Shown: positions 10,733-59,611 of the stretch, piece after piece | How the letters are laid out: the number at the start of each line of letters is the position of its first letter | How positions within the stretch are numbered: position 1 is the first letter of the stretch | Source: Armatimonadota bacterium | Lineage (GTDB): Bacteria > Armatimonadota > UBA5829 | NCBI GenBank assembly: GCA_039679645.1 | Contig: JBDKUO010000009.1 | Span: 74,324 to 138,323, forward strand | Length of the DNA stretch: 64,000 nucleotides | Reading direction: 5' to 3' | The notes under the pieces: generated by a model | Told to the model about the DNA's origin: nothing | Databases searched by the model: none | Seen by the model: the letters and a program-made list of their open reading frames with translations, nothing else | Program-made: the position numbers and the translations under genes

Positions 10733-11392
10733 ATGGAAATTAAAAAGCAAAAAGTTGGCAGCTTGCCCACCATCAGGAGACTGCCGTCCTATCTATACTT
10801 GCTTAAGCAATTTGCCCAAAATGGCCGCGACATCGTTTCCAGTACGCATATCGCCGAAAGTCTGAGACTGGAACCGATTCAGGTCAGGAAGGACCTTGCA
10901 ATCACAGGAATTGAGGGCAAGCCCAAAATCGGCTACCACGTGCCGTCGCTCATCAAGGCCATCGAAGAGTTTCTTGGTTGGGACACTCATAAGGAAGTCT
11001 TTCTTGTTGGGGCAGGCAACCTCGGCAGCGCACTGCTGGGCTATAAAGGCTTTGAGCAGCACGGTATGAAGATTATTGCAGCGTTTGACTGCGACAAATC
11101 CAAAATCGGCACGCAAATCCACCAAAAAGATGTTTTGCCGCTGGAAAAGCTGTCTGATCTTGCTCGCAGATTGAATGTAAAGCTGGGCATCATCACCGTC
11201 CCCGCCGAAGCTGCTCAGCATGTCGCCAGCGTGATGATTTCGGGCGGGATCGAAGCAATCTGGAACTTCTCACCGGTAAGGCTGGAAGTGCCTGAAGGCG
11301 TAGTCGTGCAGAATGAAGACCTTTCATCAGGCCTGGCCGTCCTCTCGGTCAAGTCGTCAAAAATACCGGACATTGAACTGCCCAATTGTTAA
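10733..11392 (+). CDS. rex: Redox-sensing transcriptional repressor Rex
   Basis: LPTIRRLPSYLYLLKQFAQNGRDIVSSTHIAE... is the winged-helix region, and VFLVGAGNLGSALLGY is a Rossmann NADH-binding motif. The gene lies directly upstream of hydrogenase genes. Confidence 0.85.
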   Translation: MEIKKQKVGSLPTIRRLPSYLYLLKQFAQNGRDIVSSTHIAESLRLEPIQVRKDLAITGIEGKPKIGYHVPSLIKAIEEFLGWDTHKEVFLVGAGNLGSALLGYKGFEQHGMKIIAAFDCDKSKIGTQIHQKDVLPLEKLSDLARRLNVKLGIITVPAEAAQHVASVMISGGIEAIWNFSPVRLEVPEGVVVQNEDLSSGLAVLSVKSSKIPDIELPNC

Positions 11393-11404
11393 TTCAGGAG
11401 TATA

Positions 11405-11917
11405 GTGATGCCGCAAACACTAGAAAAGACAACAAAGAGACTTCGCCAGTTTAAGAAGGTGTGCGAGATTCTGGATAAGTACGAACGCAATCCCGCAAAA
11501 CTGATCCCGATACTCCAGCTCATACAGGACGAGTATCGCTACCTGCCCGAGGAGGTGCTGACATACATAGCCACCTCGCTCGAACTTCCGCCCGCCAAGG
11601 TTTACGGAGTGGCTACATTCTATGCCCATTTCGCATTGGAACCCAAAGGCAAGTATGTAATCAGGCTCTGCGACGGCACAGCCTGCCATGTAAAGAAGTC
11701 GATCCCGATTCTGGAAGCCCTGCGCGAGCGGCTGGCGCTTTCGGACAAGATCAGGACCACACCGGACATGTTGTTTACGGTCGAGACGGTTTCGTGCCTT
11801 GGCGCGTGCGGGCTGGCTCCGGTAATGGTGATAAACGATGATGTCCACGGCCAGATGACGCCGGAACAGGCTGTTGCGCTCATCGATGAGATAGCTGCGA
11901 AAGAAGGTAAGAAATGA
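11405..11917 (+). CDS. hydC: [FeFe]-hydrogenase gamma subunit (NuoE-like thioredoxin-fold [2Fe-2S] protein)
   Basis: The NuoE/HndA pattern is present: ...IRLCDGTACHVKKS...VETVSCLGACGLAPVM.... Confidence 0.85.
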   Translation: MMPQTLEKTTKRLRQFKKVCEILDKYERNPAKLIPILQLIQDEYRYLPEEVLTYIATSLELPPAKVYGVATFYAHFALEPKGKYVIRLCDGTACHVKKSIPILEALRERLALSDKIRTTPDMLFTVETVSCLGACGLAPVMVINDDVHGQMTPEQAVALIDEIAAKEGKK

Positions 11918-13845
11918 TCGCTGAACTGGAAAAAGTGGCGAGCGAGTATGGTGACGCCGCCGGACGGGTCTCAAAGCGGATTATCATATGCGCAGGAACG
12001 GGGTGTGTGGCTAACGGCTCGCTTAAAGTATATGCTGAGTTTGTAAAAAGAATAAAAGATGCCGGTCTCGATATTGTGACCGAGCTAAAAGCCGAAGGGA
12101 CAGGTGATGACTGTAACCACCCTACTCTCCTTCAGGAGTCATCATCTGCTCCCATTCGGCTTTCTAAAAGCGGCTGCCAGGGCTTTTGCCAGATGGGACC
12201 GCTGGTAACAGTTGAGCCGGAAGGAATTTTTTATACAAAGGTCAAGCCGGAAGATGTGGCCGAGATCGTTCAGACGACTCTCATTGACGGCAAGGTCGTG
12301 GAACGGCTGCTCTACTGCGATCCTGTAAGCGGCAAACAATGCACCGGCACAGCGGAGATTCCTTTTTATCAGAGGCAATCGAGAACGGTTTTGAAGTCAT
12401 GCGGCATTATCGACCCTGAAGACATTCGAGAATACATACACAACGGCGGGTATGCGGCGGCAAAAAGAGCTTATACCGAGATGACCCCGGAGATGGTCTG
12501 TGAAGAAATGCTCTATTCGGGTCTGAGAGGACGCGGAGGCGGCGGATTCCCCACAGGCAAGAAGTGGGAGCTTACACGCGTGCAGCCCGGGCCTAAGAAA
12601 TATGTCATCTGCAACGGCGACGAAGGCGACCCGGGGGCATTTATGGACCGCAGTGTTATGGAAGGCAATCCGCACTCGGTAATTGAAGGAATGATGATCG
12701 CTGCCCGTGCTATAGGCGCCGATGAAGGGTATGTCTACGTAAGACTCGAGTATCCGCTGGCTGTAGCGCGAATACGACGGGCAGTAGCGGACGCTGAGGC
12801 TATAGGAGTGCTTGGCGACAACATTTTCGGGTCCGGCCAAGGCTTCAGAGTAAGCGTAATGGAAGGCGCTGGGGCGTTTGTCTGCGGTGAGGAGACTGCT
12901 TTGATCGCCTCGATTGAGGGGCAGCGCGGAATGCCTATGCCGAAACCACCGTTTCCGGCTCAGTCGGGTCTCTGGGGCAAACCGACGGTCATTAATAATG
13001 TTGAGACTCTCGCGTCGGTACCTATTGTTATTGGAAAAGGCGCAGCCGAGTTCAGACAGCGCGGAACGGAAACTTCTCCAGGCACAAAGACATTCGCACT
13101 GACCGGGCATGTGGCCAATACGGGTCTTATAGAGGTGCCGTTTGGGACTACACTGCGCGAGGTCGTATACAATATCGGCGGCGGAATAACAGATGATCGG
13201 GGCAAAGTTACCGGCGAAGGCTTTAAGGCAGTGCAGATAGGCGGGCCATCGGGCGGATGTCTGACTGAGGACCATCTCGACCTGCCTCTTGACTTCGACT
13301 CCCTAAAGGGAGTGGGCGCAATGGTGGGCTCCGGCGGGCTTGTCGTTATGAACAAGCAGACCTGTATGGTCAGGATCGCCCGGTTCTTCATGCAGTTTAC
13401 TCAGAATGAATCGTGCGGAAAGTGCGTGCTTTGCCGCGAGGGAACCAAGCAGATGCTTGCGCTTCTTGATGACATTATGGAAGGCAACGGCACAGAGAAG
13501 ACGCTGGAGACACTCGAACGCACAGCCAGGGCCGTTCAGAAGGGCTCGCTCTGCGGGTTGGGAAAGACCGCTCCAAACCCGATTTTATCCACTTTGAAGT
13601 ATTTCAGAGCCGAATACGAGGCTCATGTATATCAGAAGCGCTGCCCCGCAGGTGAGTGCAAGGCGCTTTCAAAACCGACAATCGACCCGGAGAAGTGTAA
13701 AGGCTGCACATTGTGTGCAAAGAAGTGCCCCGTTGGAGCTATCACAGGCGAGCTCAAAAAGCCCCATGTGATCAATCCCGATGTCTGCATCAAGTGCGGA
13801 GCCTGTGCTGAAGCGTGCAGGTTCAAGGCTGTCAGTGGAGTGTAA
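11914..13845 (+). CDS. hydB: [FeFe]-hydrogenase beta subunit (NuoF-like NAD(P)H-binding flavoprotein with extra Fe-S domains)
   Basis: NuoF motifs are present: GLRGRGGGGFPTGKKWE, the FMN/NADH-binding region and a SLBB segment. There is an N-terminal [2Fe-2S] domain and a C-terminal 2x[4Fe-4S] ferredoxin domain (CKGCTLCAKKCP...CIKCGACAEAC). The gene overlaps hydC by 4 nt. Confidence 0.9.
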   Translation: MIAELEKVASEYGDAAGRVSKRIIICAGTGCVANGSLKVYAEFVKRIKDAGLDIVTELKAEGTGDDCNHPTLLQESSSAPIRLSKSGCQGFCQMGPLVTVEPEGIFYTKVKPEDVAEIVQTTLIDGKVVERLLYCDPVSGKQCTGTAEIPFYQRQSRTVLKSCGIIDPEDIREYIHNGGYAAAKRAYTEMTPEMVCEEMLYSGLRGRGGGGFPTGKKWELTRVQPGPKKYVICNGDEGDPGAFMDRSVMEGNPHSVIEGMMIAARAIGADEGYVYVRLEYPLAVARIRRAVADAEAIGVLGDNIFGSGQGFRVSVMEGAGAFVCGEETALIASIEGQRGMPMPKPPFPAQSGLWGKPTVINNVETLASVPIVIGKGAAEFRQRGTETSPGTKTFALTGHVANTGLIEVPFGTTLREVVYNIGGGITDDRGKVTGEGFKAVQIGGPSGGCLTEDHLDLPLDFDSLKGVGAMVGSGGLVVMNKQTCMVRIARFFMQFTQNESCGKCVLCREGTKQMLALLDDIMEGNGTEKTLETLERTARAVQKGSLCGLGKTAPNPILSTLKYFRAEYEAHVYQKRCPAGECKALSKPTIDPEKCKGCTLCAKKCPVGAITGELKKPHVINPDVCIKCGACAEACRFKAVSGV

Positions 13846-13851
13846 AGAATT

Positions 13852-15870
13852 ATGACAAACGATTTTGTTACTATAGACGGAAGAGAAATTCCTATTGAGG
13901 GCGAACGCAATCTCCTGGAAGTGGCGCGCAAGGCCGGTATAGACATTCCGACTTTTTGCTACCACTCGGACTTGAGCGTATACGGCGCATGCAGGTTGTG
14001 TCTGGTCGAGCTGGAGGGACGGGGTATCGTCACATCATGCTCCACGGCTCCCGCGCCGGGCATGAAAGTAAAGACCAACACAGAAGAAATTCGTGAGATA
14101 CGCAAAATCGCAGTCGAGCTGCTGCTGGCAAACCACGACCAGAGCTGCCCGACCTGTCCCAAGAGCGCTTCCTGCCAGCTCCAGAACCTGGCTCGCAGGC
14201 TCGGCGTCGAGGAAGTGCGCTATAAGATGACTCATAAGCCGGTGCCGGTAGACCGGACCAGCCCGTCGATTGTCCGTGACCCGAACAAGTGCATTCTCTG
14301 CGGCGACTGCGTCCGGGCATGCAATGAGATCCAGAGCATCGGCGCTATTGACTTCGTTGGCCGCGGCTCCAACAGCGCAGTGCTTCCCGCGTTCGGCAAA
14401 GACCTGAACCAGGTGGAATGCGTATACTGCGGATTGTGCGCCAGCGTATGCCCGACTGGTGCCCTGACTCCTAAATCCGAAGTCGAAGATGTATGGAAAG
14501 ACTTGGATAACACTAAAAAGACCGTTGTTGCACAGATTGCTCCGGCGGTGCGGGTCGCCCTTGGCGAGCAGTTCGGACTGGAACCTGGAACGATCACGAC
14601 GGGCCAGATCGCCGCAGCCCTGAAATCCATGGGATTCGACAAGGTCTACGACACTTCTTTCGCGGCTGACCTGACAGTTGTCGAAGAAGCGACTGAGTTT
14701 ATAGAACGGAAGACCAAAGGCGAAGACCTGCCGCAGTTCACGAGCTGCTGCCCGAGTTGGGTAAAGTTTGCCGAGCAGTATTACCCGGAACTGCTGCCGA
14801 ATCTGTCAAGCTGCAGGTCGCCGCAGCAGATGTTTGGTTCGCTCGCCAAAGAAACACTGCCGGGTCAGCTTGGAATTGCGCTGGAAGATCTGGTAGTCGT
14901 CTCTATCATGCCGTGCACGGCCAAGAAGTTCGAGGCCAAACGAGCCGAGTTCAAGCATGGCGATGTTCCTGATGTAGACCATGTAATCACCACCCAGGAA
15001 CTGGCGAGAATGATCGAGGAGAGCGGCCTGAGGTTCAATAAGCTCGAACCTGAGTCGCTGGATATGCCGTTTGGGTTCAAGACCGGCGCCGGGGTTATCT
15101 TTGGAGCGACCGGTGGAGTGACTGAGGCCGTGCTGCGGTTCGCAGCAGAAAAACTCAGCGGCACGCAGCTCGGATCTGTCGATTTCAAGGCTGTTCGCGG
15201 CAAAGAGGGGATCCGAGAGGCAACAATAAATGTCGGCGACATCGAGTTGAAGCTTGCAGTAGTCCACGGACTTGCAAACGCCAGAAAGATTGCCGAAAAG
15301 GTCAAAGCGGGCGAGTGCGACTACGATCTGATCGAAGTCATGACATGCCCCGGCGGGTGCATTGGTGGAGCGGGCCAGCCCATCTCTCGCGATCCGGAGA
15401 CCAAGAAACTGCGCTCTCGCGGCCTGTATGATTCAGACAAGATGCTGGAGTTCCACAAATCCCAGGAAAACTATATGGTCACAGAGTGCTACTCGAACTG
15501 CCTGGGCAAAGTCGGCGGCAAAAAGGCGCATAATCTGCTGCACACAGGATATCGCAGTCGCAAACGAATAAAAGACAGCGACCTCGATCTCTTGAGCGGC
15601 ACGGACAAAGAGAAACTCTCGATAAGCGTGTGCGCAGGCACAAGCTGCATGGTGCGCGGTTCACAGCAGCTTCTGCGCGAGTTGATCGATGTGATCGAGC
15701 AGCGCGGACTACAGAACGCCGTAGACGTGAAAGCGACTTTCTGCTTCGAAGCGTGCGACCGTGGCCCGACTATCTCAGTCGGCGACACCGTGATACATAA
15801 GTGCACTATCGAGAAAGCCGTAAAGGCGTTGGACAAGGAACTTGAGCGCTTAATGCAGAAGTGCCAGTGA
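13852..15870 (+). CDS. hydA: [FeFe]-hydrogenase catalytic alpha subunit with a C-terminal thioredoxin-like [2Fe-2S] extension
   Basis: The H-cluster motifs are present: L1 FTSCCPSWV, L2 IMPCTAKKFE and L3 EVMTCPGGCIGGAGQP. There are N-terminal 2Fe-2S and 4Fe-4S ferredoxin domains. The C-terminal NuoE-like domain (SISVCAGTSCMVRGSQ...CFEACDRGP) is of the Thermotoga HydA type. Confidence 0.9.
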   Translation: MTNDFVTIDGREIPIEGERNLLEVARKAGIDIPTFCYHSDLSVYGACRLCLVELEGRGIVTSCSTAPAPGMKVKTNTEEIREIRKIAVELLLANHDQSCPTCPKSASCQLQNLARRLGVEEVRYKMTHKPVPVDRTSPSIVRDPNKCILCGDCVRACNEIQSIGAIDFVGRGSNSAVLPAFGKDLNQVECVYCGLCASVCPTGALTPKSEVEDVWKDLDNTKKTVVAQIAPAVRVALGEQFGLEPGTITTGQIAAALKSMGFDKVYDTSFAADLTVVEEATEFIERKTKGEDLPQFTSCCPSWVKFAEQYYPELLPNLSSCRSPQQMFGSLAKETLPGQLGIALEDLVVVSIMPCTAKKFEAKRAEFKHGDVPDVDHVITTQELARMIEESGLRFNKLEPESLDMPFGFKTGAGVIFGATGGVTEAVLRFAAEKLSGTQLGSVDFKAVRGKEGIREATINVGDIELKLAVVHGLANARKIAEKVKAGECDYDLIEVMTCPGGCIGGAGQPISRDPETKKLRSRGLYDSDKMLEFHKSQENYMVTECYSNCLGKVGGKKAHNLLHTGYRSRKRIKDSDLDLLSGTDKEKLSISVCAGTSCMVRGSQQLLRELIDVIEQRGLQNAVDVKATFCFEACDRGPTISVGDTVIHKCTIEKAVKALDKELERLMQKCQ

Positions 15871-15938
15871 TTGTAGTTTACACCCTATTCGGGATGTGAT
15901 AGACTAGGATTAGACTAGTCGAATTCAGGAGGATCGAT

Positions 15939-16181
15939 ATGGAAACAGTAGGTTCTTATGATGCAAAGACACATCTGCCAGCGCTGCTCGATAGAGTGGC
16001 TAAGGGTGAAAAGATAACAATTACGAAGCATGGCGTACCTGTTGCGATGCTTGTGCCGATGGAACGTACCAAACAGGACGTGAGAGCAGCAATTGAAGCG
16101 ATGAAAGAATTCGGCAAGGGACGTCGTCTGCCCGAGGGGATGTCGATCAGGGACATGATCGAGGAAGGACGAAGATATTGA
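15939..16181 (+). CDS. Phd/YefM-family type II antitoxin
   Basis: METVGSYDAKTHLPALLDRVAKGEKITITKHGVPVAMLVP is the Phd/YefM fold signature. Confidence 0.8.
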   Translation: METVGSYDAKTHLPALLDRVAKGEKITITKHGVPVAMLVPMERTKQDVRAAIEAMKEFGKGRRLPEGMSIRDMIEEGRRY

Positions 16182-16594
16182 GACGCTTTGTGCTGGACTC
16201 TTCGATAACGATGTCGTGGTATTTCGCCGATGAAGCGCACTCTTATGCAAAGGCCATACTGGAACATATGGACGAATCGGAAGCATTTGTTCCGACTATT
16301 TGGCCTATTGAAGTGTGCAACGTTCTGCTTGTCGGCGAAAGACGCGGCAGACAAACTGCCGCAGATGCTGCGCGGTTTCTTGCCGTGCTCAGCGCATTTT
16401 CGATTAATGTGGTTGACTTGATTCAATGGGAAACGCTTGAAGAATTGATTGACGTAGCCCGTAGATGCAATCTCTCAGCATACGACGCTTCATATCTTGA
16501 ACTTGCCATGCGCGAAGGACTGCCTCTGGCAACTCTTGACCAGCGTCTACAGACAGCCGCGGGTGAACTTGGGGTTCAACTCGCCGTAGTATAG
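16178..16594 (+). CDS. vapC: PIN-domain VapC toxin
   Basis: MRRFVLDSSITMSWYFADE... is a PIN N-terminus with the conserved Asp, and ...LSAYDASYLELAM is the PIN C-terminal acidic motif. An ATGA 4-nt overlap links it to the antitoxin gene. Confidence 0.8.
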   Translation: MRRFVLDSSITMSWYFADEAHSYAKAILEHMDESEAFVPTIWPIEVCNVLLVGERRGRQTAADAARFLAVLSAFSINVVDLIQWETLEELIDVARRCNLSAYDASYLELAMREGLPLATLDQRLQTAAGELGVQLAVV

Positions 16595-16604
16595 AAGGCA
16601 CATC

Positions 16605-18377
16605 ATGAGCAACGATCCGAACTCAGGACAAGTCGTGTTTACAAATAAGGCGCATTGTCGTGACTGCTATCGATGCCTGCGCGTATGCCCGGTCAAAGCG
16701 ATCCGCATGGAAAACGGCCAGGCATACGTCGTGCCGGAACGCTGCATCTCATGCGGCACATGCATTCGCGAATGCCCGCAGGGCGCCAAACAGTTCAGGA
16801 ACGATATAGAACGGGCCTCGCGGATAATCGAGTCATCCGAGGTTGTGGCCGCAAGCGTAGCGCCGTCATTTGCCGCCGTCTTCTCCGAACCGGAGCAGAA
16901 ACGTCTGGCGTCGGCGCTGCGTAAGCTCGGCTTTTCATACGTCGGCGAGACGGCCATCGGGGCATATCAGGTTGCTCAGGAGACAACCAGGCTCTGTAAC
17001 TCTCAGCCGGACAAGTCGCATATCTGCACAGCTTGTCCGGCGGTGGTGAGATATGTCGAGCTTTACGAGCCGAACAGGCTTGATGCCCTTACTCCCATTG
17101 TCTCTCCGATGATCGCTCATGCGCGCCACATCAAAAGCAAACTCGGCAAAGACGCAAAGGTCATCTTCATAGGGCCATGCGTCGCGAAGAAGGCTGAGGC
17201 CGACCGTCCGGAAAACAAAAACATCGTCGACTGCGTTCTCACATTCAGCGAACTGATGGACTGGTTCGAGCGTGAAGGAATATCTCTTTCGATGTGTGAG
17301 GAGAGCCACTTTAATGAGGAACCGGAGGGCGACGCGCGCTTCTTCCCTCTCACCGGCGGAAGCATGCGCACAGCCAGCCTAGATACCGATCTTCTGGCTG
17401 CGGATGTGGTCTCTGTGACCGGCATCGGCGATATACGTGAAGCCCTCGCCGACTGCGGTTCGGATAGTCTTCCGCAGGTAATCGAGCCTCTGTTCTGCGA
17501 ACAGGGATGTGTCAATGGCCCTGCCATACCGGCCAAAAGCAGTCTGTTCAGAAGACGCCGCGACGTAATCGAATATGCCACCGACCATCCCGGCCTGCAC
17601 ACACCCGGCGATGAAACCGTACATACAGACCTGACTGCACGGTTCAGACCAAATGCATCTTTTGATGATGAGGTCACCGAAGAGCAGATCCGCGAAGTGC
17701 TGGAAAAGACAGGCAAAGCCTCCCCCGAAAATCAGCTCAACTGCGGCGCATGCGGGTATTCATCCTGCAGAGAAAAGGCCGCTGCGGTAGTTCGCGGGAT
17801 GGCGGAGCTTGAGATGTGTATACCATACATGAAGCGTCTGGCCGAACAGCGCACAGACAAGATCATTGAGACCAGCCCCAACGGCATTGTGATCCTGGAC
17901 GAGCGGCTATCGATCATCCATATGAACCCGGCGTTCAGGAAGTTCTTCATGTGCTCGGAGGCGGTATTGGGTCGCCCGATATCGTATCTCATGGACCCCG
18001 ATCCGTTCGAGAAGCTGGCATCAGGGAAGGTGGGACTGATAACGACCATTGTCCGGCACGACCGTTACAATCTCCACTGTCATGAAATACTTTACGCGCT
18101 TCCGGAAGAAAAGCAGTATGTCGGGATTTTTGTGGATATAACCGGCAGCAGCGTAAGCAAGGAAAAACTCGACCATCTGCGCGCGCAGACCGTGACCCAG
18201 GCGCGTGAACTGCTGGAACATCAGATCAACATGGCTCAGACTATAGCAAAATTCCTCGGCGAGAGCACCGGCCAGGGCGAAGCTCTGCTGGAGAAACTGA
18301 TAGAGATCGCGGGCGATGAGTCAGGCGAGGGCAAAGGGACCAACGAATGGCTGAAGGATACATACACGTCGAAGTAG
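16605..18377 (+). CDS. hydS: Sensory [FeFe]-hydrogenase (HydS/HfsB-like): N-terminal 4Fe-4S domain, H-cluster domain and C-terminal PAS domain
   Basis: The 2x[4Fe-4S] region is CRDCYRCLRVCP...CISCGTCIRECP. The H-domain has a degenerate L1, HICTACPAV, in which the proton-relay Cys is replaced by Ala. L2 is IFIGPCVAKKAE and L3 is FCEQGCVNGP. A C-terminal PAS-like region follows (...IVILDERLSIIHMNPAFRKFF...). Confidence 0.75.
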   Translation: MSNDPNSGQVVFTNKAHCRDCYRCLRVCPVKAIRMENGQAYVVPERCISCGTCIRECPQGAKQFRNDIERASRIIESSEVVAASVAPSFAAVFSEPEQKRLASALRKLGFSYVGETAIGAYQVAQETTRLCNSQPDKSHICTACPAVVRYVELYEPNRLDALTPIVSPMIAHARHIKSKLGKDAKVIFIGPCVAKKAEADRPENKNIVDCVLTFSELMDWFEREGISLSMCEESHFNEEPEGDARFFPLTGGSMRTASLDTDLLAADVVSVTGIGDIREALADCGSDSLPQVIEPLFCEQGCVNGPAIPAKSSLFRRRRDVIEYATDHPGLHTPGDETVHTDLTARFRPNASFDDEVTEEQIREVLEKTGKASPENQLNCGACGYSSCREKAAAVVRGMAELEMCIPYMKRLAEQRTDKIIETSPNGIVILDERLSIIHMNPAFRKFFMCSEAVLGRPISYLMDPDPFEKLASGKVGLITTIVRHDRYNLHCHEILYALPEEKQYVGIFVDITGSSVSKEKLDHLRAQTVTQARELLEHQINMAQTIAKFLGESTGQGEALLEKLIEIAGDESGEGKGTNEWLKDTYTSK

Positions 18378-19501
18378 ATACTCAGCAGGTCTCCAAACGT
18401 CCGGGCGACGTCTGCGGGGATGTGGTAGCCTACGAGCGGACGCCATCATCGTGCATGATAGTCGTCAGTGACGGTATGGGGCATGGCATAAAGGCTCATA
18501 TCGCTGCCCAGATGTGCGTCTCACGCGTGCTGGAACTGCTGCGGCAGGGAATATCGCTCCGCAAGGCGTTCTCGAGCCTGGTAAACACTCTGGAGCAAGC
18601 AAAAGGCACCGACCTGCCGTACGCGGTATTTACCGTCGCGCGCATACTCAATGACGGCGTAACCACTGTTCTCTCCTACGAAATGCCGCCCCCCATATTT
18701 GTTACACGGCGATACTCACAAGTCCTGCGCCGTCGAACCACCATGGAAGGGCATTCACTGGTCGGTGAGGCAAACTGCCACCTTTCAACTGATGAAGGCA
18801 TATTGATCGTTACAGACGGTATCACCCAGGCAGGACTGGGCATGGGGCTGCCTAACGGCTGGACTGTCGACGGAACAAGCCAGTATATAAGTGACTGCTT
18901 AAGTGCCGGTGCATCGCTAATGGGTGTGCCCGGCTGCGTCTTGAACCGCGCGAGAGAACTGTGGAATGCCGGATTGGGTGACGACTGCACGGTCGCGCTG
19001 GCATCGTGCCGAAAAGGGCGCACTGTAAACATCCTTACAGGGCCCCCATCGAATAACAAAAAGGATCATGAAGTTATTCAGCGATTCATGATGATGGATG
19101 GAGTCAAAGTCGTATGTGGAGGAACCACGGCGCAGATTGTTGCAAAGGCTTTAGGCAAACCGCTGCTTATGGAGCCCAACCCGCAGAGCATGCTCGCGCC
19201 TCCTCGCCATATCATAGATGGGATTGATCTTGTGTCTGAGGGAGCCGTCACCCTTAATCAGGTCTATAACGTACTCGACGAAGACTACAAAGTCTTTGAT
19301 GAGGAGAGCGGTGTAACTCAGCTTCACCGGTATCTTCGTGAGGCCGACCGCATCAACATAATGCTTGGCGGCGCAATAAACCCTGCCACGACGGACATCA
19401 GCTTCCGCCAGAAGGGCATCCTCACGAGGCAAACCATCATCCCCCTGATCGCCGAAAAGCTCAAAGACGCAGGCAAACTCGTAGTTATCGAACGCATCTA
19501 G
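18347..19501 (+). CDS. SpoIIE/PP2C-family serine phosphatase (HfsC-like), overlapping the 3' end of hydS
   Basis: ...GDVCGDVVAYERTPSSCMIVVSDGMGHGIKAHIAAQM... is a PPM/SpoIIE catalytic core, and ...GILIVTDGITQA follows it. It overlaps hydS by 31 nt. Confidence 0.7.
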   Translation: MAEGYIHVEVDTQQVSKRPGDVCGDVVAYERTPSSCMIVVSDGMGHGIKAHIAAQMCVSRVLELLRQGISLRKAFSSLVNTLEQAKGTDLPYAVFTVARILNDGVTTVLSYEMPPPIFVTRRYSQVLRRRTTMEGHSLVGEANCHLSTDEGILIVTDGITQAGLGMGLPNGWTVDGTSQYISDCLSAGASLMGVPGCVLNRARELWNAGLGDDCTVALASCRKGRTVNILTGPPSNNKKDHEVIQRFMMMDGVKVVCGGTTAQIVAKALGKPLLMEPNPQSMLAPPRHIIDGIDLVSEGAVTLNQVYNVLDEDYKVFDEESGVTQLHRYLREADRINIMLGGAINPATTDISFRQKGILTRQTIIPLIAEKLKDAGKLVVIERI

Positions 19502-23804: not shown

Positions 23805-24476
23805 TCAGGCAAGCTGCATTTTTATTGGCTGAAGCATGCTTTCATGCATGACACTACATAAATCGGAAAGCACCTGCTCAACATGTTCTCTCGCGCAATC
23901 TCTCGCGAGTTTCTCATCACCGGCGATGATGGCATTAACAAGAGCATCATGAATCTCCGGGCAGCACACCGACTGTCTCAGCCAAGTTGTATTGCGAATT
24001 GTATTTGTTATAACGCGAGAATTTGCAAACGTCCGACTCAACAATTGTGATCTCGTACACTGCACTATAAAACTATGCAGTTCGCTGTCAGCTTTTAGGC
24101 AGCCTTTGGTGCCCTGTGCTATTGCACAGTTCGTAAATACCGTCGCCAAGTCCCTGATCTTTTGGCGCTGCGCATCTGTTGCACGAACCGCGCAAAATCC
24201 GGCAGCCATCTGTTCCATGGACGACCTGATCATTATTGCGCATTCTATCTCATCAAATGACCAATCCATAACTTGCGCCCCGCGGTTCGGCTCATTGACG
24301 ACAAGACCATCATGTTCCAACATACATATCGCTTTGGCGACCGGAATACTGCTTGTATTGAGTTTATGCGCAAGATCACATTGTACCAGCCGCATCCCGG
24401 GCTTTAGTTTTCCGCATTCGATCAGATCACGCAGTTGCTGGTAGACATTCTCAGATATGTGTTCTGTTGACTTCAT
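23805..24476 (-). CDS. GntR/FadR-family transcriptional regulator (copy 1)
   Basis: MKSTEHISENVYQQLRDLIECGKLKPGMRLVQCDLAHKLNTSSIPVAKAICMLEHDGLV is a GntR winged-helix N-domain, followed by an FCD-type C-domain. The ATG at 24474-24476 is taken as the start because the listed ORF begins at TTG. Confidence 0.8.
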   Translation of the reverse strand: MKSTEHISENVYQQLRDLIECGKLKPGMRLVQCDLAHKLNTSSIPVAKAICMLEHDGLVVNEPNRGAQVMDWSFDEIECAIMIRSSMEQMAAGFCAVRATDAQRQKIRDLATVFTNCAIAQGTKGCLKADSELHSFIVQCTRSQLLSRTFANSRVITNTIRNTTWLRQSVCCPEIHDALVNAIIAGDEKLARDCAREHVEQVLSDLCSVMHESMLQPIKMQLA

Positions 24477-24520
24477 GTTAATTCGACTCAATAAATCATA
24501 TTAGCAGCCTATCATTATTA

Positions 24521-24568
24521 TCTATACCATGATTACAACTGCATGTCAACTATAAGATGCATTATTTC
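24521..24568 (-). promoter_or_regulatory. Conserved sigma70-like promoter box of the GntR genes (TTGACA, 17 nt, TATAGA, as read on the minus strand)
   Basis: Plus-strand tcTATACCATGATTACAACTGCATGTCAACTATAAG. The same box recurs at 29531, 33911 and 38262. Confidence 0.45.
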
Positions 24569-28376: not shown

Positions 28377-28509
28377 TACTTTCTCTCCTTTTTATAGTGA
28401 CGTTTTTGGCAAGAATGATTAAGCACAATTGATGTGCTTATACTTGACTAGTTGATAATTTTCTGAGCGGCTATTCCGGGATTGGGATATTTCTTCACGG
28501 GGTCCGCCC

Positions 28510-28650
28510 TTCCTTTATGTCCCCTCCTTCTCGGTTGCGAGGGGGCTTTCTATGAAGCCCTCAACGCGAAATCTGCCGAGAAGCCTACCGCCCCGCATCG
28601 CGAGGCGGCGTCTTCTCTGTGCTTTATGGCCACTATATCTTCAAATCTGC
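28510..28650 (-). promoter_or_regulatory. Conserved structured leader of paralog 1: two hairpins plus a conserved box, about 200 nt upstream of the start codon
   Basis: Hairpin A is gagggggctttc-tatg-aagccctc. Hairpin B is ccgccccgcatcgcgaggcgg. The box ggccactatatcttcaaatctgcagcctgcc follows. Copies are present upstream of all five paralogs, and their stems carry compensatory base changes. Confidence 0.5.
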
Positions 28651-28752
28651 AGCCTGCCTTAGGCAATTCATACTCACACTTGCACTCACACTCACACTTT
28701 ACTGCAATCGGCATACTTGACACCGGGAGAGAATTATCGACTATTGCAAGAA

Positions 28753-29433
28753 TCAGGCAAACTGCATTATTTTTGGCCTAGGCATGCTTTCATGCATGAC
28801 CCGGCACAAATCGGAAAGCACTTCCTCAACATGTTCTCTCGCACGGTCTTTCGCGAGTTCTTCATCACCGGAGATGATGGCATCAACAAGACTATCATGA
28901 ATACTTGGACAGCATACCGGCAGCCTCAGCCACGTTGCATTGCGGATTGTGTTTGTAATTACACGGGAATTGCTGAGAGTCCGACTAAGCAATTGTGAAC
29001 CCGAACACTGCACAATGAAAGCATGTAAGTCGGAATCCGCCTTCAGACAGCCGGCGGTGTCCTGTACAATCGCGCAATCTGTGAATGCCTTGGCAAGTTC
29101 CTTGATCTTTTCGCGCTGCTGGGTGGTTGCCCGAATCGCGCAAAATCCGGCAGCTATTTGCTCCATAGACGATCTGATCATGATCGCGCATTCTATCTCA
29201 TCAACTGACCAGTCTCTGACCTGTGCGCCCCGATTGAGTTCGCATACGACTAGCCCATCGTGCTCCAACCTGCATATTGCTTTTGCGACAGGAATGCTGC
29301 TTGTATTAAGCATCCGAGCAAGATCACGCTGTATTAGACGCATGCCGGGTTTCAGTTTTCCGCATTCAATCATATCGCGCAGTCGTTCGTAGACAGTCTC
29401 GGATATGTTTTCAGTCAGTTTCATTTCAATCAT
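28753..29433 (-). CDS. GntR/FadR-family transcriptional regulator (copy 2, about 75% identical to copy 1)
   Basis: MKLTENISETVYERLRDMIECGKLKPGMRLIQRDLARMLNTSSIPVAKAICRLEHDGLV.... The start is placed by alignment with copy 1. An alternative ATG lies at 29424. Confidence 0.8.
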   Translation of the reverse strand: MIEMKLTENISETVYERLRDMIECGKLKPGMRLIQRDLARMLNTSSIPVAKAICRLEHDGLVVCELNRGAQVRDWSVDEIECAIMIRSSMEQIAAGFCAIRATTQQREKIKELAKAFTDCAIVQDTAGCLKADSDLHAFIVQCSGSQLLSRTLSNSRVITNTIRNATWLRLPVCCPSIHDSLVDAIISGDEELAKDRAREHVEEVLSDLCRVMHESMPRPKIMQFA

Positions 29434-29530
29434 GTCTTTCTGATGTAAAACCACACTGCACTTAACTATAATACAGTGTTGCCGGCTATTCAGAAGGCGC
29501 ACTACATCTATGTGCTTAGCTCGACATTAG

Positions 29531-29578
29531 CCTTTATACCATGATTGTCGGGTTATGTCAATCAAAATATATATCATC
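29531..29578 (-). promoter_or_regulatory. Conserved GntR promoter box (copy 2)
   Basis: ttTATACCATGATTGTCGGGTTATGTCAATCAAAAT. On the minus strand this gives TTGACA, a 17-nt spacer, then a TATA-type -10 element. Confidence 0.45.
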
Positions 29579-33294: not shown

Positions 33295-33439
33295 TACTTT
33301 CTCTCCTTTGCAAAATTTTTACTGGAGTGAACGTTCAAGCAAAAACGACTTGCGGTTCATGCTTTAGTCTGTTTACACGATTCTCTGTGCGGTAATTTCG
33401 GATTTGGAATAGATTTTGCACCAAGTCCGGCTCCCGCCT

Positions 33440-33600
33440 TCCTCTATGTACCCCCCTTATCAATTGCGAAGGGACTCTCTATGAAGCCCTCAACGCATAA
33501 TTTACCGAGGATCAACCGCCCCAATGCGAGGCGGCGTCCTCAGTGCTTTACGGCCACTATATCTTCAAATCTGCAGCCTGCCACAGACAACTCGTAATCA
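33440..33600 (-). promoter_or_regulatory. Conserved structured leader of paralog 2
   Basis: tcaattgcgaagggactctctatgaagccctcaacgcataatttaccgagg...accgccccaatgcgaggcggcgtcc...ggccactatatcttcaaatctgcagcctgcc. Confidence 0.5.
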
Positions 33601-33910
33601 AACTTATTGCATATGTATGTTTATCATACCACTCAACAAGACCAAATGGTTGTACCCTATAATGTATTAGCCCACCTATCAAGATAAAAGACAACCGCCA
33701 TGCAATACGTATGTTTGTCATACCATTATGCACACCCTATTGGATGCAATGTATCATGTGATTGTCTGCCTGTCAAGGTGGAATGAGAGTGTTTTGAAAA
33801 TATCTTTTGCAGCGCTCTATACGAATCTTTCCGCCTGAGACCTGCACTGCAAATCTCATTACCCGAATCGTGGAATGCTTGCAAACCAGAGTAACTTGTT
33901 CAATATAATG

Positions 33911-33950
33911 TATACCATGGTGATTGGCTGCTGTCAACTATAATTATGCA
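33911..33950 (-). promoter_or_regulatory. Orphan copy of the GntR promoter box, with no GntR gene downstream
   Basis: gTATACCATGGTGATTGGCTGCTGTCAACTATAATTATGCA. On the minus strand this reads TTGACA, then gcagccaatcaccatgg, then TATACA. Confidence 0.4.
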
Positions 33951-37889: not shown

Positions 37890-38030
37890 GCCTTTATGTC
37901 TCCTCCTTACTCAATTGCGAAGGAACTCTCTTTGAAGCCCTCAACGCTGAATTAGCCAAAGTGCAGCGGCCTCGCAATGTGAGGCGGCTTTCTCTGTGCT
38001 TTACGGCCACTACTTTTTAATATGCAGTTT
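37890..38030 (-). promoter_or_regulatory. Conserved structured leader of paralog 3. A second copy of hairpin B lies at about 38170-38195.
   Basis: ctcaattgcgaaggaactctctttgaagccctcaacgctg...gcggcctcgcaatgtgaggcggc.... An extra gccgccccaagatccgaggcggc, followed by ccggccaccgg, sits at 38168-38210. Confidence 0.45.
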
Positions 38031-38261
38031 GCCTGAGGCATACTTTTACGCATGACTAGGCACAAACCAGCAAGTACTTACGGATATGTGTTCCGCCAGT
38101 TTCTTGTTGTGTTATCAACTGTTCACTGCATCTAGATTATTATCCGTTATTGCTCGATGCTGAATGCCGCCCCAAGATCCGAGGCGGCACTCTCGCACTT
38201 GCCAATCCGGCCACCGGATTGCAGTCAGCTTTCCTCAACGGCTACTGACTCATCACTACCA

Positions 38262-38310
38262 TCTATACCATGGTGATTACGGGTCGTCAACACAAATATG
38301 TACATAATTG
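38262..38310 (-). promoter_or_regulatory. Orphan copy of the GntR promoter box
   Basis: tcTATACCATGGTGATTACGGGTCGTCAACACAAATATG. Confidence 0.4.
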
Positions 38311-42254: not shown

Positions 42255-42370
42255 TCCTCCCTTCACGAATACGAGGGGGCTTTCTTTGAAGCCCTCAACG
42301 CATAATTTACCGAGGAGTAGCCGCCTCGTATTTTCGAGGCGGCGTCCTCTTTCACGGCCACTACGCTTTA
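42255..42370 (-). promoter_or_regulatory. Conserved structured leader of paralog 4
   Basis: cgagggggctttctttgaagccctcaacgcataatttaccgaggagtagccgcctcgtattttcgaggcggcgtcc. Hairpin B is a perfect 9-bp stem here. Confidence 0.5.
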
Positions 42371-42675
42371 ATGATGCGTACCAGGATATTAGCTGAGAAA
42401 CACGCAGTACGCCACCGAAAAATGATCAAACTGTAACGAAAAACGGTTATGCGCGCTTTCTACGGATTACAGTGATTGACGATTTTACAATCTGCGCTAC
42501 AGTTAATGCTACAGCATATGTGACAAGGGCATTATGCTTTCTCTTTACTTGTTTGTCAATAGGGAATTTGCTGCGTTATGCAAAATATTTCATAATTAAA
42601 ATGTCGCTAACCGGAGGAATAGAATTGCTGATGCAAATAGATCATATTGCATTGTAAAACGAGGGGGCTTTATGA

Positions 42676-46399: not shown

Positions 46400-46515
46400 T
46401 TCTTCTCAGTGCAGGAGCCTTCTCTGAGGTTCTCAGCACTTTTTTGCGGGCGAGCGCCACCTCCAATACAGAGGTGGCTCACCCGCACTCTCACTTACCG
46501 GCCACTTGTCAAGGA
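46400..46515 (-). promoter_or_regulatory. Diverged copy of the conserved leader upstream of paralog 5
   Basis: Hairpin B is replaced by gccacctc-caataca-gaggtggc, with G-to-A and C-to-T covariation that keeps the stem intact. accggccacttgtc corresponds to the ggccactat box. Confidence 0.4.
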
Positions 46516-46759
46516 TTCAGAAAGTTAGCTTACTATCCTGACTCTATGACTTACCTTTGTTTTACCATGCTCATCCGTGTTTGTCAATGGAATTGTGCGG
46601 TTTTGTGCAGATTTATTTTGTCACAGCCACTATCGCACTTCTTTTGTGACTCATAGCAACAGCTATTGAGGCAATATCTGATCGGTGATGAGCGGTTCGA
46701 ACATCGGAGCGTAGATGCGCTGAGGTTAATTTAGTGAGGCTGCATGGAATTGAATGTGC

Positions 46760-47978: not shown

Positions 47979-48425
47979 TCAGAAAGGATCCGAGGGAGGG
48001 ATGTTTCCGGCGACCGGCACATTGAACGAAAACTGTTCATGAGACTGCAAGCTGTTGGCATCTACTGCGTATATGACAACCGTACAGGTCAGGGAAGCCG
48101 ATGATATGTTGGACGGAGCGGTCACAACAGCCTGATAAGTGCTGCCGCTACTTAGCGTCATCGCCTTTTCAGATATCAGTTTACCGCCTTTGCTTACAGC
48201 AGCCTTCACAGAGCTAATAGAGGAAGCATCCGTCACATCAGCCATAATCGTCACGTTTCCCCCTACAAATGTAAGGGATGACGTGTCTGCCTTCATATTT
48301 TCTATTTTCGGACCACTTGTATCCGGCGCAGGCGTTCCGCCTCCGCCGCCACCACATCCGGCAACCAATACTACACCAATGCATGCAATTACCAGCACCG
48401 CAGTATTTGTTTTAATCAACTTCAT
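47979..48425 (-). CDS. Small lipoprotein (lipobox LVAGCGGGGGG, Ig-like body)
   Basis: MKLIKTNTAVLVIACIGVVLVAGC is followed by a Gly run. It is a paralog of the gene at 61574-62035. Confidence 0.6.
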   Translation of the reverse strand: MKLIKTNTAVLVIACIGVVLVAGCGGGGGGTPAPDTSGPKIENMKADTSSLTFVGGNVTIMADVTDASSISSVKAAVSKGGKLISEKAMTLSSGSTYQAVVTAPSNISSASLTCTVVIYAVDANSLQSHEQFSFNVPVAGNIPPSDPF

Positions 48426-48447: not shown

Positions 48448-51400
48448 TTAAGGCGCAGGCAGTATTAGGTCACACTCTGCTTTAGCCTTGATCCAGAATG
48501 CCTGCCATGGCGCCAATACTCCAACCGCATCAGGCAGCACGGACTTGTCATATACCAGATAGTAACTACCAGCATCAGGATCCCATCCCCAGGCATAATT
48601 GCAGACGAGACTATCCGCCTCTCTGAGGGTGACGCTGCTCCCCATATAATTAACCTTTATGGCATCAGAATCCCAGGTAACATCCTTCACAAACGGATTG
48701 CCGATCATGTTCCAACCCGCATACAGATGAATTGTCGCAGGGTTTTTCTGCGATGGTATAATCCCCGTTGGCGTCAAATGCGTACTGCCGAAGCGTACCC
48801 AGAACCCACGCCCGGGTGTTTGATCCGCCGGGTCAAACCAAGTTAGATCATCAGGATACATGACATAAGCATTAGATTGTGTATCATACATCGCCCAACA
48901 ATTTGTGTAGAAATCAATTGCAGCCTTAGGATCGGTCTCATCCGGTATGATCGGCAGAGACACCATAGCCACGCTTGTCCACGCATCACCAGGCGTTCTT
49001 TCAAGCACGTTGACCTTGAGCGTATCGGTACCCTTATTTCCCGCCGTATCAATCGCAGTAACTGTTATTGTGTCACTGTAACTGTCGTCGCCATCATCGG
49101 GAATAGTGATGTCACCAGTGCTCCAAGTGCTCCATGGTGAAACTCCGCTGCACTCCCCGGAGCTACCTGATGATTTCGACCATTTCACACTCACAATTCC
49201 TTTGTCGTCAGACGCAGTCCCCGATATCGTCACCGTATTGCAATTTTTTGTGCATTCACTATCGGTTGTAGGCGAAGTGATTGTTATCTTGGGTGCTACG
49301 TTGTCGTAATTAACGGTGATCGGATCCGACGCGCTGTTTGCGTCGCCATATCCGTTGTGCACAACCGCCTCATCAATGGAGGCAATCACTGTTCCGGTCT
49401 TGCTCATTCCGCTTACGGCAACCGAATATGTCTTGTTGTCTGCGCCTTTTGCTACGACTGCACTTGTAGCGCCTGCCGTGCCTGCGAGTGTTACATCACC
49501 TGTAGCAAAGTCGTTTACATCCTCACTGAATACAACCTTCAGATTAATCGGAGAAGTGTTTGTCGTATCTGCCTGGTCTTTATCGAGACCTATCGTTGCA
49601 GTTAAAGGCTTCCAGGTATATGTAACCATCACAGCCGATGAAACCGTATTAAGATTACCTGCATCATCGCTGGCTACAGACGCCGGAATCTGCGCTGTCA
49701 AAGTACCAGCGGATGTTAGTCCGCTCACTGTAATGTTATATGTGGTCCTGTCAAAAGGCTCAGCCTCTAACAATGTGACGCTCGTAGTGCCGCTCGCTGT
49801 ACTTTTTATCTTCATATCAGATTTGTCAAAGCCGGAAACAGGCTCGCTGAAGACAGCAGTGAAGCAGATAGGCAGCGTCCTTGTGGTGTCTTCCTGGCCG
49901 GCAGCTCTGCTTAAAGTGACGGTCGGAACGTCCATGTCATAGTCTACCGTGCATTCGTCGGATGCTGTATTGCCATTGCCTTCCAAGTCAATTACGGCAT
50001 TTCTTGGGATCGATATCGTCACATCACCGGAACTGCCCATACCGCTTACCGCAACTGTGTAAACAGCACCGGTTCCTGACACGTCCGCAGTTGTCGGATT
50101 GGCCAATCCACTCAAATCCACATCGCTGTCTTCAAAACCAGTAACTGCACTGCTGAAAACAACCTTGAAGTTGACAGGTGACTTATTTGTCAGGTCATTA
50201 TCCTTAGTGATTGTAACTGACGGACCGGGCCAAGTATACGATATCTGATCAAGTAGAACACCCGCGGTATTTGGATTACCCGCCACATCATTGGCAGCGC
50301 CGGCCGGAATCGAAATAGACACGAATCCGGAAGAAGTCATCCCAGATACAGCAACATCAAAGATCTGGCCGACTGAACCCCCATCAGGCGTCACGACTGC
50401 AGTTGTCGCACCTGCCGTACCATCTGCAGATACGTCGGATGAAGTAAAGCCGGTCACCGGCTTAGAGAATGTGACCGTAAAGTGGACCGGACTTTCATTT
50501 GTGGGATTATCGCCGGCAGGCTCCATTTGAACTGTCGGTGCAGTTATATCGTATGTTACGACATTGTCGCCACCGTCAGACGCCTCATTGTAGTTTACAC
50601 CACTAAGGTCGACGGCAGCCGCCGCTGGAATATCTATCTGAACAGTCCCTGACGACGTTATGTCTGATACGGTTACTTCGTAAGTCGTGCCACTGCCGGA
50701 TACCGCAACTGTTTTGGCCCCGCCTGCTGTGCTGGAAGATGTATCCACATCAGAAGAGCTGTCACCAAAACCGGTAACGGGTTCGCTGAACACGACCTTG
50801 AATTTTATCGGTTGGTTTTTAGCTATGAGCGCCTGGCCGGTCGCCCTAGTTATCGTAACAGTCGGATTGCTTTGATCGTCATAGACAACTTCATTGTCTA
50901 CAATATTCGATCCATCTTCCAAGTTAACATTGTAGTTGCCCGCAGCATCCTGAATCGATCCCACAGGTATATTGACAATTACACTGCCTGAATGAGAAGC
51001 GCCATCGACTGTGACTGTGTATGTGAGAGAATCTATCGGATTGACCTCAATACTTAGGTTGCCGCCGACAGTGCTCTGAGAAATATCAATATTATCTTTC
51101 GTGAAGATCTTCACTGCTTCCGAGAGAGTCACCAAGAAGTTGACCTGCGGATCAGTCGTAGGATCAACCTGCCCATCCGCTAATTTTATAGTCGCAACCG
51201 GCGATGTCCTGTCGAAAAGAACAGTGTCCGTTACACCGGCCTCTTTGGTGGTGGACGCCGCATTCGCATTGCCCGCAGTATCAAAAACCTTTCCGGCTTC
51301 AACTTGAAGCGTAACCGTTCCATCCGTCATGCTGCTTACGGCTACATTGTATTTTTTGCCGGGTACGATTGGTACCACAGTCTTTTCTATCGTTACACCA

Positions 51401-57807: not shown

Positions 57808-58449
57808 TCAGGAGTTATCGGCATCTTCCTCCGTGATTCGGACTTTGTGAAGGTGACAAGTGTCATTAAGAAGCCGCAGAGCAGGGCGATCACTCAGTTC
57901 GAGGATGGAAATGCCGGCATTGGACATGGCCATACATCGGAAAAACGCAGGGCCCTGGCCGCATGCGGCGCATATAAGGCCGCGAAGTGATCCGCCATGC
58001 ACGACCACGAGCAGACGCTCACCATCCCTATGTTTTTCCGGTATCATTTGCAGAAACTTGCCGCAGCGGGATATCATACTCTCCAGGGTTTCAGATCCGG
58101 GCGGACGATTCTGAGCGGGATGCTCACGCCATTTGCGGTAATCTTCGGGATACTTTTCCTCAAACTCGCTTTGAGTAAGGCCCTGTACTTTGCCGAAATA
58201 TGCCTCACGGATCAGGTCCGTGGCCTGAACGGGCAGGTTATGCGGCGCAGAGATGATCTCGGCAGTGGCAAGAGCGCGGCCAAGATCGCTGGAGTATATA
58301 GCATCGAACTTCTCGGAGGCTAATCGAGCAGCAGCGGCTTGAGCCTGTTTTATGCCGAGTGGAGTAAGCGGCGAATCGGCATGACCTTGGATACGCCCCT
58401 CCAGATTGTGCACAGTCTCGCCGTGCCTGACCAGATATAGAGTTATCAT
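57808..58449 (-). CDS. Histidine phosphatase family protein (phosphoglycerate-mutase-like)
   Basis: MITLYLVRHGETVHNLEGRIQGHADSPLTPLGIKQA contains the RHG catalytic motif. Confidence 0.8.
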   Translation of the reverse strand: MITLYLVRHGETVHNLEGRIQGHADSPLTPLGIKQAQAAAARLASEKFDAIYSSDLGRALATAEIISAPHNLPVQATDLIREAYFGKVQGLTQSEFEEKYPEDYRKWREHPAQNRPPGSETLESMISRCGKFLQMIPEKHRDGERLLVVVHGGSLRGLICAACGQGPAFFRCMAMSNAGISILELSDRPALRLLNDTCHLHKVRITEEDADNS

Positions 58450-59504: not shown

Positions 59505-59611
59505 ATAATGCGTCTTAACACGAGATGGGGTAAATTCCTGCGTAAAGAGACCCGGCGAATAAATTCGCGGCAACAAACCCTTCGGGAACTCGAAACTCTG
59601 CCGGCAAAGAC

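Follow-up and report, generated by a model that had tools for sequence, protein, structure and literature searches.

Orphan cis-regulatory RNA motifs and riboswitch candidates have been described by comparative genomics (Weinberg et al. 2017, PMC5737381), and such motifs are held in Rfam as 'Cis-reg' families. A leader of this general kind was followed up in a stretch of 64,000 nucleotides (nt) from an Armatimonadota bacterium (the window; GenBank assembly GCA_039679645.1, contig JBDKUO010000009.1, positions 74,324 to 138,323 of the forward strand), in which a short conserved box and two hairpins, termed B and A, lie upstream of each of five paralogous genes, P1 to P5. Structured 5' untranslated regions (UTRs) are also known from highly expressed envelope and S-layer genes, as in E. 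coli ompA and the slpA leaders of Lactobacillus and Thermus, and long genes for secreted or surface proteins are the classic targets of RfaH, UpxY and LoaP. Like the orphan motifs, the Armatimonadota element joins a multi-hairpin 5' leader structure, covariation and conserved unpaired nucleotides to a single class of gene; unlike them, it has no match in Rfam 15, belongs to one rare Armatimonadota-type gene family and shows no recognizable expression platform. At the gathering threshold, a search of the window against Rfam 15 returned only a transfer RNA, the P1 leader returned only noise at E<=10, and the contigs L001, L003, L004 and L006, which are among the contigs of eleven members of the protein family fetched for comparison with the window, gave no match on the element at E<=5. 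No literature report linking Armatimonadota with a structured RNA motif was found. Altogether, the element belongs to a known general kind of RNA but is a new family restricted to its lineage, with a well-supported structure, and it is apparently a regulatory RNA that has not been described before.

A sequence-only reading of this DNA had proposed an ordered set of leader elements upstream of all five paralogs, and these were confirmed to be present in the sequence where that reading had placed them, with motifs far above chance (AGTGGCCGTAAAGCACAGAG at <=3 mismatches, three matches against 0.00 expected; GCGTTGAGGGCTTCANAGARAG, four against 0.00). The elements had been quoted from the plus strand, whereas genes and RNA are both to be read from the minus strand (Table 1). 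In the RNA, the order from 5' to 3' is the box AGUGGCC, hairpin B, hairpin A, an AAGGAGG box with a 'second box' (in P1-P4 only) and the ribosome-binding site (RBS). The only block that is strictly invariant across copies is GUGG, inside aGUGGccg, and the single-stranded box of the paralog leaders reads AGUGGCYG(G); the longer 'conserved box' of the earlier reading, ggccactatatcttcaaatctgcagcctgcc, is complete only in P1 and P2 and partly kept in P3, but its GUGGCC core is universal among the paralogs. Similarly, the 'second box' ccggaatagccgctcagaaaatt holds in P1 and P3, but it has diverged in P2, is degenerate in P4 and is absent from P5. CC(G/A)CUCA recurs in L157 at a distance of about 95-100 nt from the ATG. 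As a possible pairing partner of the box, a recurrent CC(G/A)CUCA some 95-110 nt from the start codon, for which L157a shows one compensatory change, is a weak lead.

Hairpin B is present as proposed, yet it is longer than had been described, because an outer stem extends it to a two-part helix of 16-18 base pairs (bp) in total with a bulge of 2-4 nt on the 3' side. The outer stem reads GAGAAG/CUUCUC in P1, GAGGA/UCCUC in P2 and P4, and GCGGGUGA/UCGCCCGC in P5; the inner stem of P3 contains one C.C mismatch. The paired substitution that had been noticed between P4 and P5 (GCCGCCUC/GAGGCGGC versus GCCACCUC/GAGGUGGC) is real. Reading of the alignment revealed no K-turn or conserved internal loop in hairpin B, and its loop sequences are not conserved. 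The loop of hairpin A, C(U/C)UCRNAGARRG, is the second conserved piece of the element, and this motif is confined to these leaders in all sequence examined (window count 5, against 0.67 expected). In the paralog leaders, the loop reads CUUCRNAGAAAG.

A covariance model built from eight copies of the element recovered 17 copies across 8 assemblies, with scores of 26-105 bits, each immediately upstream of a family gene and on the strand of that gene. In the 17-sequence alignment, 89.4% of cells are standard-paired, compared with 41-48% after displacement of the 3' partners by 1-3 columns; compensatory double changes occur in 24 of the 26 pairs, and not one of 500 column shuffles matched any observed measure. 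A 12-sequence set gave the same picture of covariation. Furthermore, when 12 copies were aligned by MAFFT without regard to structure, hairpin A and the inner B stem emerged de novo from RNAalifold, and 13 of the 20 pairs were compensatory. Folding of single copies produced hairpin A and/or B at z values of -1.2 to -6.2, and both hairpins were obtained in most full copies, with the exceptions of P3 and L006b. The stem sequences themselves span from GCCGCCUCG/CGAGGCGGC to AUUAUUUG/CAAAUGAU (L006). These data demonstrate that helices B and A are maintained by compensatory substitutions across the 17 copies, and the fold is kept in at least seven other assemblies while the sequence changes, which indicates a real regulatory RNA. 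The proposal that the leader is conserved as structured RNA and not as coding sequence was borne out as well: the covariation is genuine, and the indels in the alignment are not multiples of three.

The strand on which selection acts was apparent from two asymmetries. Cells with G.U pairs outnumber those with A.C pairs by 35 to 12 on the gene strand, and in the window the model scores no more than 14.6 bits on the opposite strand, compared with 87-105 bits on the gene strand; together these indicate that the selected object is the gene-strand RNA and not a DNA palindrome. This bears directly on the explanation of the leader as a DNA-level feature, in which the hairpins would be palindromic operators for GntR regulators, or the leader a recombination or gene-conversion arm among the paralogs. 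Two GntR/FCD genes, whose products weakly resemble the FCD-type regulators NanR, LldR and PdhR, do flank P1, the hairpins resemble GntR/FadR operators in being inverted repeats near GntR genes, and for about 30 nt upstream of the box the P1 and P2 leaders hardly differ. However, the arms covary, with G.U wobbles, instead of preserving fixed half-sites, they lie about 60-130 nt into the predicted transcript, and the fold is kept where the sequence differs by 40-60% and where no GntR gene is a neighbor. The operator pair suggested by the sequence-only reading was rejected on these grounds, and the DNA-level explanation, which is already largely refuted, is very improbable as a whole.

A better candidate for a GntR operator is located at the promoters. 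Exactly five sites in the window have the promoter form TTGACR-N14-CATGGTA[AT]A, namely those before P5, P3, P2 and both GntR genes, and the same form precedes family genes in other assemblies. Four of the five sites (all except that of P5) share AATCA(CC)ATGGTATA, consisting of a ACCATGGT palindrome and a GGTATA hexamer that overlap the -10 element. From its sequence, and from its presence at the promoters of both GntR genes, this feature is a candidate autoregulatory GntR operator that is more plausible than the hairpins. Control may thus operate in two separate layers, over transcription at the promoter and at the RNA level in the leader.

The distribution of the element was examined across the fetched contigs and sequence databases. 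Outside the window, the model found copies in L001 (two), L003, L004, L005, L006 (two), L152, L155, L156 and L157 (two), so that the element stands upstream of homologous genes in seven other assemblies, as the sequence-only reading would have it; the ortholog of the P5 leader core is at L005 9759-9873. The box is always present, although a hairpin can be missing: in L002 the box is followed directly by hairpin A, and hairpin A is absent from L001b and from a sixth, partial copy in the window (38142-38219), in which only box and hairpin B are found. Detached A-like loops were seen at L003 956 and L001 10173. The locus of a more distant homolog, P0008 (L007; 29% identity), contains no element, and an exhaustive scan of the window with all filters off gave no further model match. 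The DNA pattern AGTGGCYRN{8,30}GCCRYYYCN{35,65}CYTCRNAGARRG had 58 matches in GTDB genomes and 86 in JGI metagenomes; these were rejected as chance matches because their count is about that expected by chance and none scored above 19.7 bits. Taken together, these data show that, in the sequence examined, the element accompanies essentially every family gene and nothing else. A dispersed repeat of the REP/MITE type (repetitive extragenic palindrome or miniature inverted-repeat transposable element) was considered and rejected, since all copies are upstream of family genes on the gene strand.

In the AT-rich leaders at L003 956-1000 and L002 354-398, an A-type hairpin is followed by a second hairpin with the loop CGUGGAUAA, itself another GUGG; the second hairpin may be an additional module of the same system.

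The genes behind these leaders form a tandem array encoding secreted proteins of 1166-1210 amino acids that share only 42-47% pairwise identity. The proteins carry a PQQ-like beta-propeller, a CarboxypepD_reg domain and an F5/8-type C domain (CBM32/discoidin), and the family architecture also includes an Ig-like domain and an unannotated conserved C-terminal part of about 350 amino acids that ends in GLGYSLNPATP. The nearest solved structures are propeller repeats of a 'cell surface protein' and carbohydrate-binding modules of glucanases and sialidases. The family is rare, with about 20 members among 5.8 billion proteins, all from uncultured assemblies, some of which are labelled Armatimonadota; a search of GTDB genomes with the five-paralog protein alignment found no family locus. 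In several genomes (window 24744-46256; L004, L152, L155, L156), the family genes adjoin genes for BNR/sialidase-like proteins, for GH42, GH2, GH123 and GH5 glycoside hydrolases and for N_methyl (pseudopilin-like) proteins.

Each paralog is also preceded by an extended, purine-rich RBS, rAAAGGAGAGAAnnAGUA-AUG (28377-28393, 33295-33311 and equivalent sites), which is specific to the family and kept across genomes, unlike the ordinary Shine-Dalgarno (SD) sequences of the other genes in the window. Judged by its sequence, the extended RBS suggests very high translation of the secreted proteins.

Transcription of the leader was assessed by locating promoters and comparing conservation. The element is preceded by a near-consensus promoter, TTGACR-N14-(C)ATGGTA(A/T)A. 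In 11 leaders, which come from 8 assemblies, the start of the -35 hexamer is 76-85 nt upstream of GUGG, and this would place the box at about +40 to +50. In the comparison of P5 with L005, the proteins are 85% identical and the fourfold-degenerate sites 52-68%, while identity is 42% in the spacer upstream of the promoter, 84% in the promoter and 67-78% in the leader. The jump from 42% to 84% indicates that constraint begins at the promoter and spans the whole leader. Both the predicted promoters and this comparison are in line with the expectation of the sequence-only reading that the element is transcribed. The partial copy upstream of P3 is likewise situated about 50 nt past the predicted P3 transcription start, with the promoter 76 nt upstream. 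The five genes are monocistronic, with their own promoters and terminators, except for P1: no promoter was found between GntR-1 and the P1 leader, and the GntR-1 promoter therefore probably also drives P1. On this sequence evidence, P1 is probably co-transcribed with GntR-1 as a bicistron, with the element in the intercistronic region. A short direct repeat rich in GTGTGA/GTGAGT (28668-28699) lies between the GntR-1 stop codon and the P1 element.

The leaders were then inspected for the parts of a conventional switch. The sequence-only reading had named an attenuator and a riboswitch among the possible roles. The attenuator was rejected: the stretch from the element to the ATG contains neither an intrinsic terminator nor a leader peptide, only a weak AT-rich hairpin in P1 (28420-28440), and the alignment indels speak against a peptide. 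The same terminator analysis found canonical terminators at gene ends in the window. Sequestration of the SD was not evident either, as its predicted accessibility ranges from 0.16 to 0.69 across the leaders with no common pairing partner; in the minimal leaders L003 and L006a, hairpin A is about 38 nt from an open SD. Helices predicted downstream of the element in P1-P3 show no covariation. Dual-hairpin ANTAR leaders resemble the element in having two hairpins in the 5' leader, one with a hexaloop. An ANTAR target was nevertheless rejected, because the A hexaloop reads CRNAGA and does not have A at position 1 and G at position 4, the B loops vary from 4 to 8 nt, and there is no overlapping terminator.

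A new riboswitch class would have the box, B and A form an aptamer, for example for a glycan-derived sugar relevant to the neighboring GH42, GH2, GH123 and BNR genes, with the ligand altering translation or Rho-dependent termination of the downstream gene. The general features of a riboswitch are found: a conserved structured 5' UTR element, strong covariation and conserved unpaired nucleotides, here invariant in the junction strand and the loop. The length of helix B and the position of its bulge are constant, and the element is tied to one functional gene class within glycan-degradation clusters. In addition, the box GUGGC repeats the 3' arm of B (GGYGGC) and, from a reading of the sequence, could compete for the 5' arm GCCRC as a possible switch; in P1-P3 and, by eye, in P4, the AAGGAGG box is an alternative pairing partner for the 3' arm of hairpin A. 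However, neither a terminator nor a consistent SD-sequestering helix supplies an expression platform, the distance from element to ATG varies from 38 to 169 nt with intervening sequence that is not conserved between genomes, and the internal loop of B lacks sequence conservation. The invariant box likewise has no significant downstream partner for a closing stem or pseudoknot (RNAduplex against shuffled downstream leaders, mean z +0.35), and the distribution is extremely narrow. A classical riboswitch is made less likely by the missing expression platform together with the modular loss of A or B while the box stays, and we regard a new riboswitch class as unlikely.

The position of the box, near +40 to +50 from the predicted start, together with two hairpins, also brings to mind elements that modify RNA polymerase or recruit a NusG paralog, which would here give processive antitermination through the 3.6-kb genes. 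HK022 put, Bacillus EAR, the LoaP hairpin and RfaH ops/JUMPStart are similar in having promoter-proximal hairpins with a conserved tract, in needing no local terminator or SD switch and in serving long genes for surface or secreted products. The 3' arm of B with its bulge reads GGCGGUAG in P1, identical to the ops core, but GGCGGUUG or GGUGGCAG in other copies. Across the window, the number of ops-like matches at <=2 mismatches is that of chance (58 against 49 expected), only P1 among the leaders matches at <=1 mismatch, and the conserved ops 12-mer GGCGGTAGnnTG is thus not a feature of these leaders, so RfaH ops/JUMPStart was rejected. In contrast to the known systems, no NusG paralog is encoded in the window or the fetched flanks, each target is a single gene served by a promoter and a terminator of its own, and neither EAR, which is in Rfam, nor any other Rfam antitermination RNA matches. 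Processive antitermination is therefore an improbable explanation.

As a separate observation on the same arm, P1 28581-28592 (minus strand) reads GGCGGTAGGCTT across the B 3' arm and bulge, one mismatch from the RfaH ops consensus, and the corresponding segment is GGCGGTTG or GGTGGCAG in other copies.

A bolder form of these proposals sees in the element a new class of RNA that suffices by itself as sensor or effector, either a glycan-metabolite riboswitch for lectin-like surface proteins or a put/EAR-like RNA that reprograms RNA polymerase, with the GUGGC repeat as a conformational switch; this, too, we consider rather unlikely.

The 5' end of the leader has a further structure. Between the predicted transcription start and the box, single-sequence folds, and only these, give a 5'-proximal hairpin, P0, with equivalents of unrelated sequence in 11 other leaders that fold at -11 to -27 kcal/mol; in 12 leaders P0 is predicted to start within about 10 nt of the predicted transcription start. 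The ompA and slpA leaders share with these a long leader, a strong promoter and RBS, a 5'-terminal hairpin (predicted here), a single-stranded segment between hairpins for the binding of a factor (putative here) and abundant secreted or surface targets; unlike them, with which it has no sequence or structural homology, the element has a box of 8-9 nt and a loop that are invariant across genomes and paralogs. An effect on stability like that of the ompA and S-layer leaders would be a functional analogy. The leader could go no further than this and be an RNA-processing or stability determinant only, with B as an RNase III substrate or with P0 and B protecting the 5' end, and with no signal-responsive partner. 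P0 itself, the constant length of the 16-18 bp helix B, and the very strong promoter and RBS, which suggest abundant mRNAs, are consistent with such a role. However, the sequence of P0 is free and that of the box is not, and pure stability elements normally need neither an invariant single-stranded box of 8-9 nt nor a loop conserved in sequence. A role in processing or stability alone accordingly has a low probability.

The explanation that we favor, tentatively and with slightly less than even confidence, is that the leader is a factor-binding 5'-UTR element that controls mRNA fate in a rare Armatimonadota family of large secreted glycan-binding proteins. The modularity of the element, with the strong promoter, the strong RBS and the missing terminator or SD switch, favors a factor platform over a classical riboswitch or attenuator. 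Acting in cis on the mRNA that carries it, the RNA would be a platform on which a common trans-acting factor docks. This factor would most likely be a protein but might be a small RNA (sRNA), which would then be complementary to UCCGGCCACU. It would recognize the loop of hairpin A and the invariant single-stranded box, which is exposed between two stable helices, and its binding would set mRNA stability, translation or elongation in a coordinated manner for the whole set of paralogs, without an intrinsic terminator or a built-in SD-sequestering switch. In this the element would be similar to the structured 5' UTRs of envelope or S-layer genes with very high expression. Transcription initiation would probably be controlled separately at the shared promoter, through the candidate GntR operator overlapping the -10 element.

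It should be noted that several points weigh against this explanation. Neither the window nor the fetched flanks encode a candidate RNA-binding protein, a NusG paralog or a complementary sRNA, and the proposed trans-acting factor is therefore hypothetical. A ligand-binding aptamer would account just as well for the constant helix length, for the position of the bulge and for the invariant nucleotides of the junction. All transcription starts are predictions from sequence, and in P1 and P2 a -10-like TATAGT overlaps the box (GTGGCA-17-TATAGT); if it were used, the RNA would start inside the box. Finally, the 17-sequence alignment was fitted to the model, and the sample is small, drawn from 8 assemblies of which several are closely related.

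The coordinates of the paralogs, the leader elements and the promoters are collected in Table 1. On the minus strand, P5 is preceded by a gene for a protein of about 3000 amino acids (48448-57501), a gene for a protein of 148-150 amino acids with no Pfam or NCBIfam match (47979-48425) and a gene for a BNR protein, and this block is syntenic, with an identical gene order, in the related metagenome-assembled genome GCA_039683595.1 (L005 1-8288). Elsewhere in the window, a [FeFe]-hydrogenase cluster (10733-19501) has genes for a Rex-like regulator, for subunits resembling NuoE and NuoF, for a HydA-type large subunit and for a PAS-domain protein similar to sensory hydrogenases, after which comes a SpoIIE-type phosphatase. 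At 57808-59576 on the minus strand, a gene for a bacterial Clp1-like P-loop protein (polynucleotide kinase family domain) adjoins and overlaps a histidine-phosphatase gene; these two may be an RNA repair or processing pair.

Table 1. Paralogs, regulators, leader elements and promoter sites, numbered from the first letter of the window
Feature	Position	Strand	Details
P1 gene	24744-28376	minus	
P2 gene	29764-33294	minus	
P3 gene	34142-37738	minus	
P4 gene	38584-42162	minus	
P5 gene	42756-46256	minus	
GntR/FCD regulator flanking P1	23805-24491	minus	77% identical to GntR-1
GntR-1 (GntR/FCD regulator flanking P1)	28753-29502	minus	
P1 leader core	28536-28634	minus	box AGUGGCCA 28627-28634; covariance model (R1) match 28523-28638, 97.7 bits
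P1 hairpin B	28575-28620	minus	inner stem 28587-28609; single-sequence fold
P1 hairpin A	28536-28568	minus	loop CUUCAUAGAAAG 28546-28557; single-sequence fold
P1-P4-group downstream box (P1)	28521-28529	minus	AAGGAGGGG; not kept as such in other genomes
P1-P4-group downstream box (P1), the 'second box'	28457-28479	minus	CCGGAAUAGCCGCUCAGAAAAUU; not kept as such in other genomes
P2 leader core	33465-33558	minus	box 33551-33558; B 33504-33544; A 33465-33497; 104.8 bits
P3 leader core	37916-38011	minus	box 38004-38011; B 37955-37997; A 37916-37948; 98.4 bits
Partial copy upstream of P3 core	38142-38219	minus	box GGUGGCCGG and hairpin B only; 16.2 bits, fold z -3.75
P4 leader core	42270-42362	minus	box 42355-42362; B 42309-42350; A 42270-42302; 95.1 bits, fold z -3.39
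P5 leader core	46408-46506	minus	box 46499-46506; B 46446-46486; A 46408-46440, loop CCUCAGAGAAGG; 87.5 bits
P0 hairpin (P5 example)	46508-46550	minus	single-sequence fold
Promoter-form site, GntR gene 23805-24491	24523-24549	minus	
GntR-1 promoter	29535-29561	minus	promoter-form site; upstream of GntR-1
P2 second promoter-like site	33748-33776	minus	
P2 distal promoter	33911-33937	minus	promoter-form site; TTGACA-N14-CATGGTATA
P3 promoter	38264-38290	minus	promoter-form site; TTGACG-N14-CATGGTATA
P4 promoter-like site	42531-42559	minus	TTGACA-17-CATAAT, 11/12 consensus positions
P5 promoter	46561-46587	minus	promoter-form site; TTGACA-N14-CATGGTAAA; -35 starts 82 nt upstream of GUGG

The phylum Armatimonadota has been little studied and is for the most part uncultured, and the element marks a clear regulon in it, made up of every paralog of a secreted beta-propeller and CBM32 family in glycoside-hydrolase clusters. 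It offers an entry point into how surface glycan-binding proteins are coordinated in these bacteria. Should the partner be a metabolite, the element would be a rare sugar-linked riboswitch; should it be a protein or RNA polymerase, it would be a new module of post-initiation control. Either way, the motif can be used for RNA family databases and for the annotation of metagenomes.

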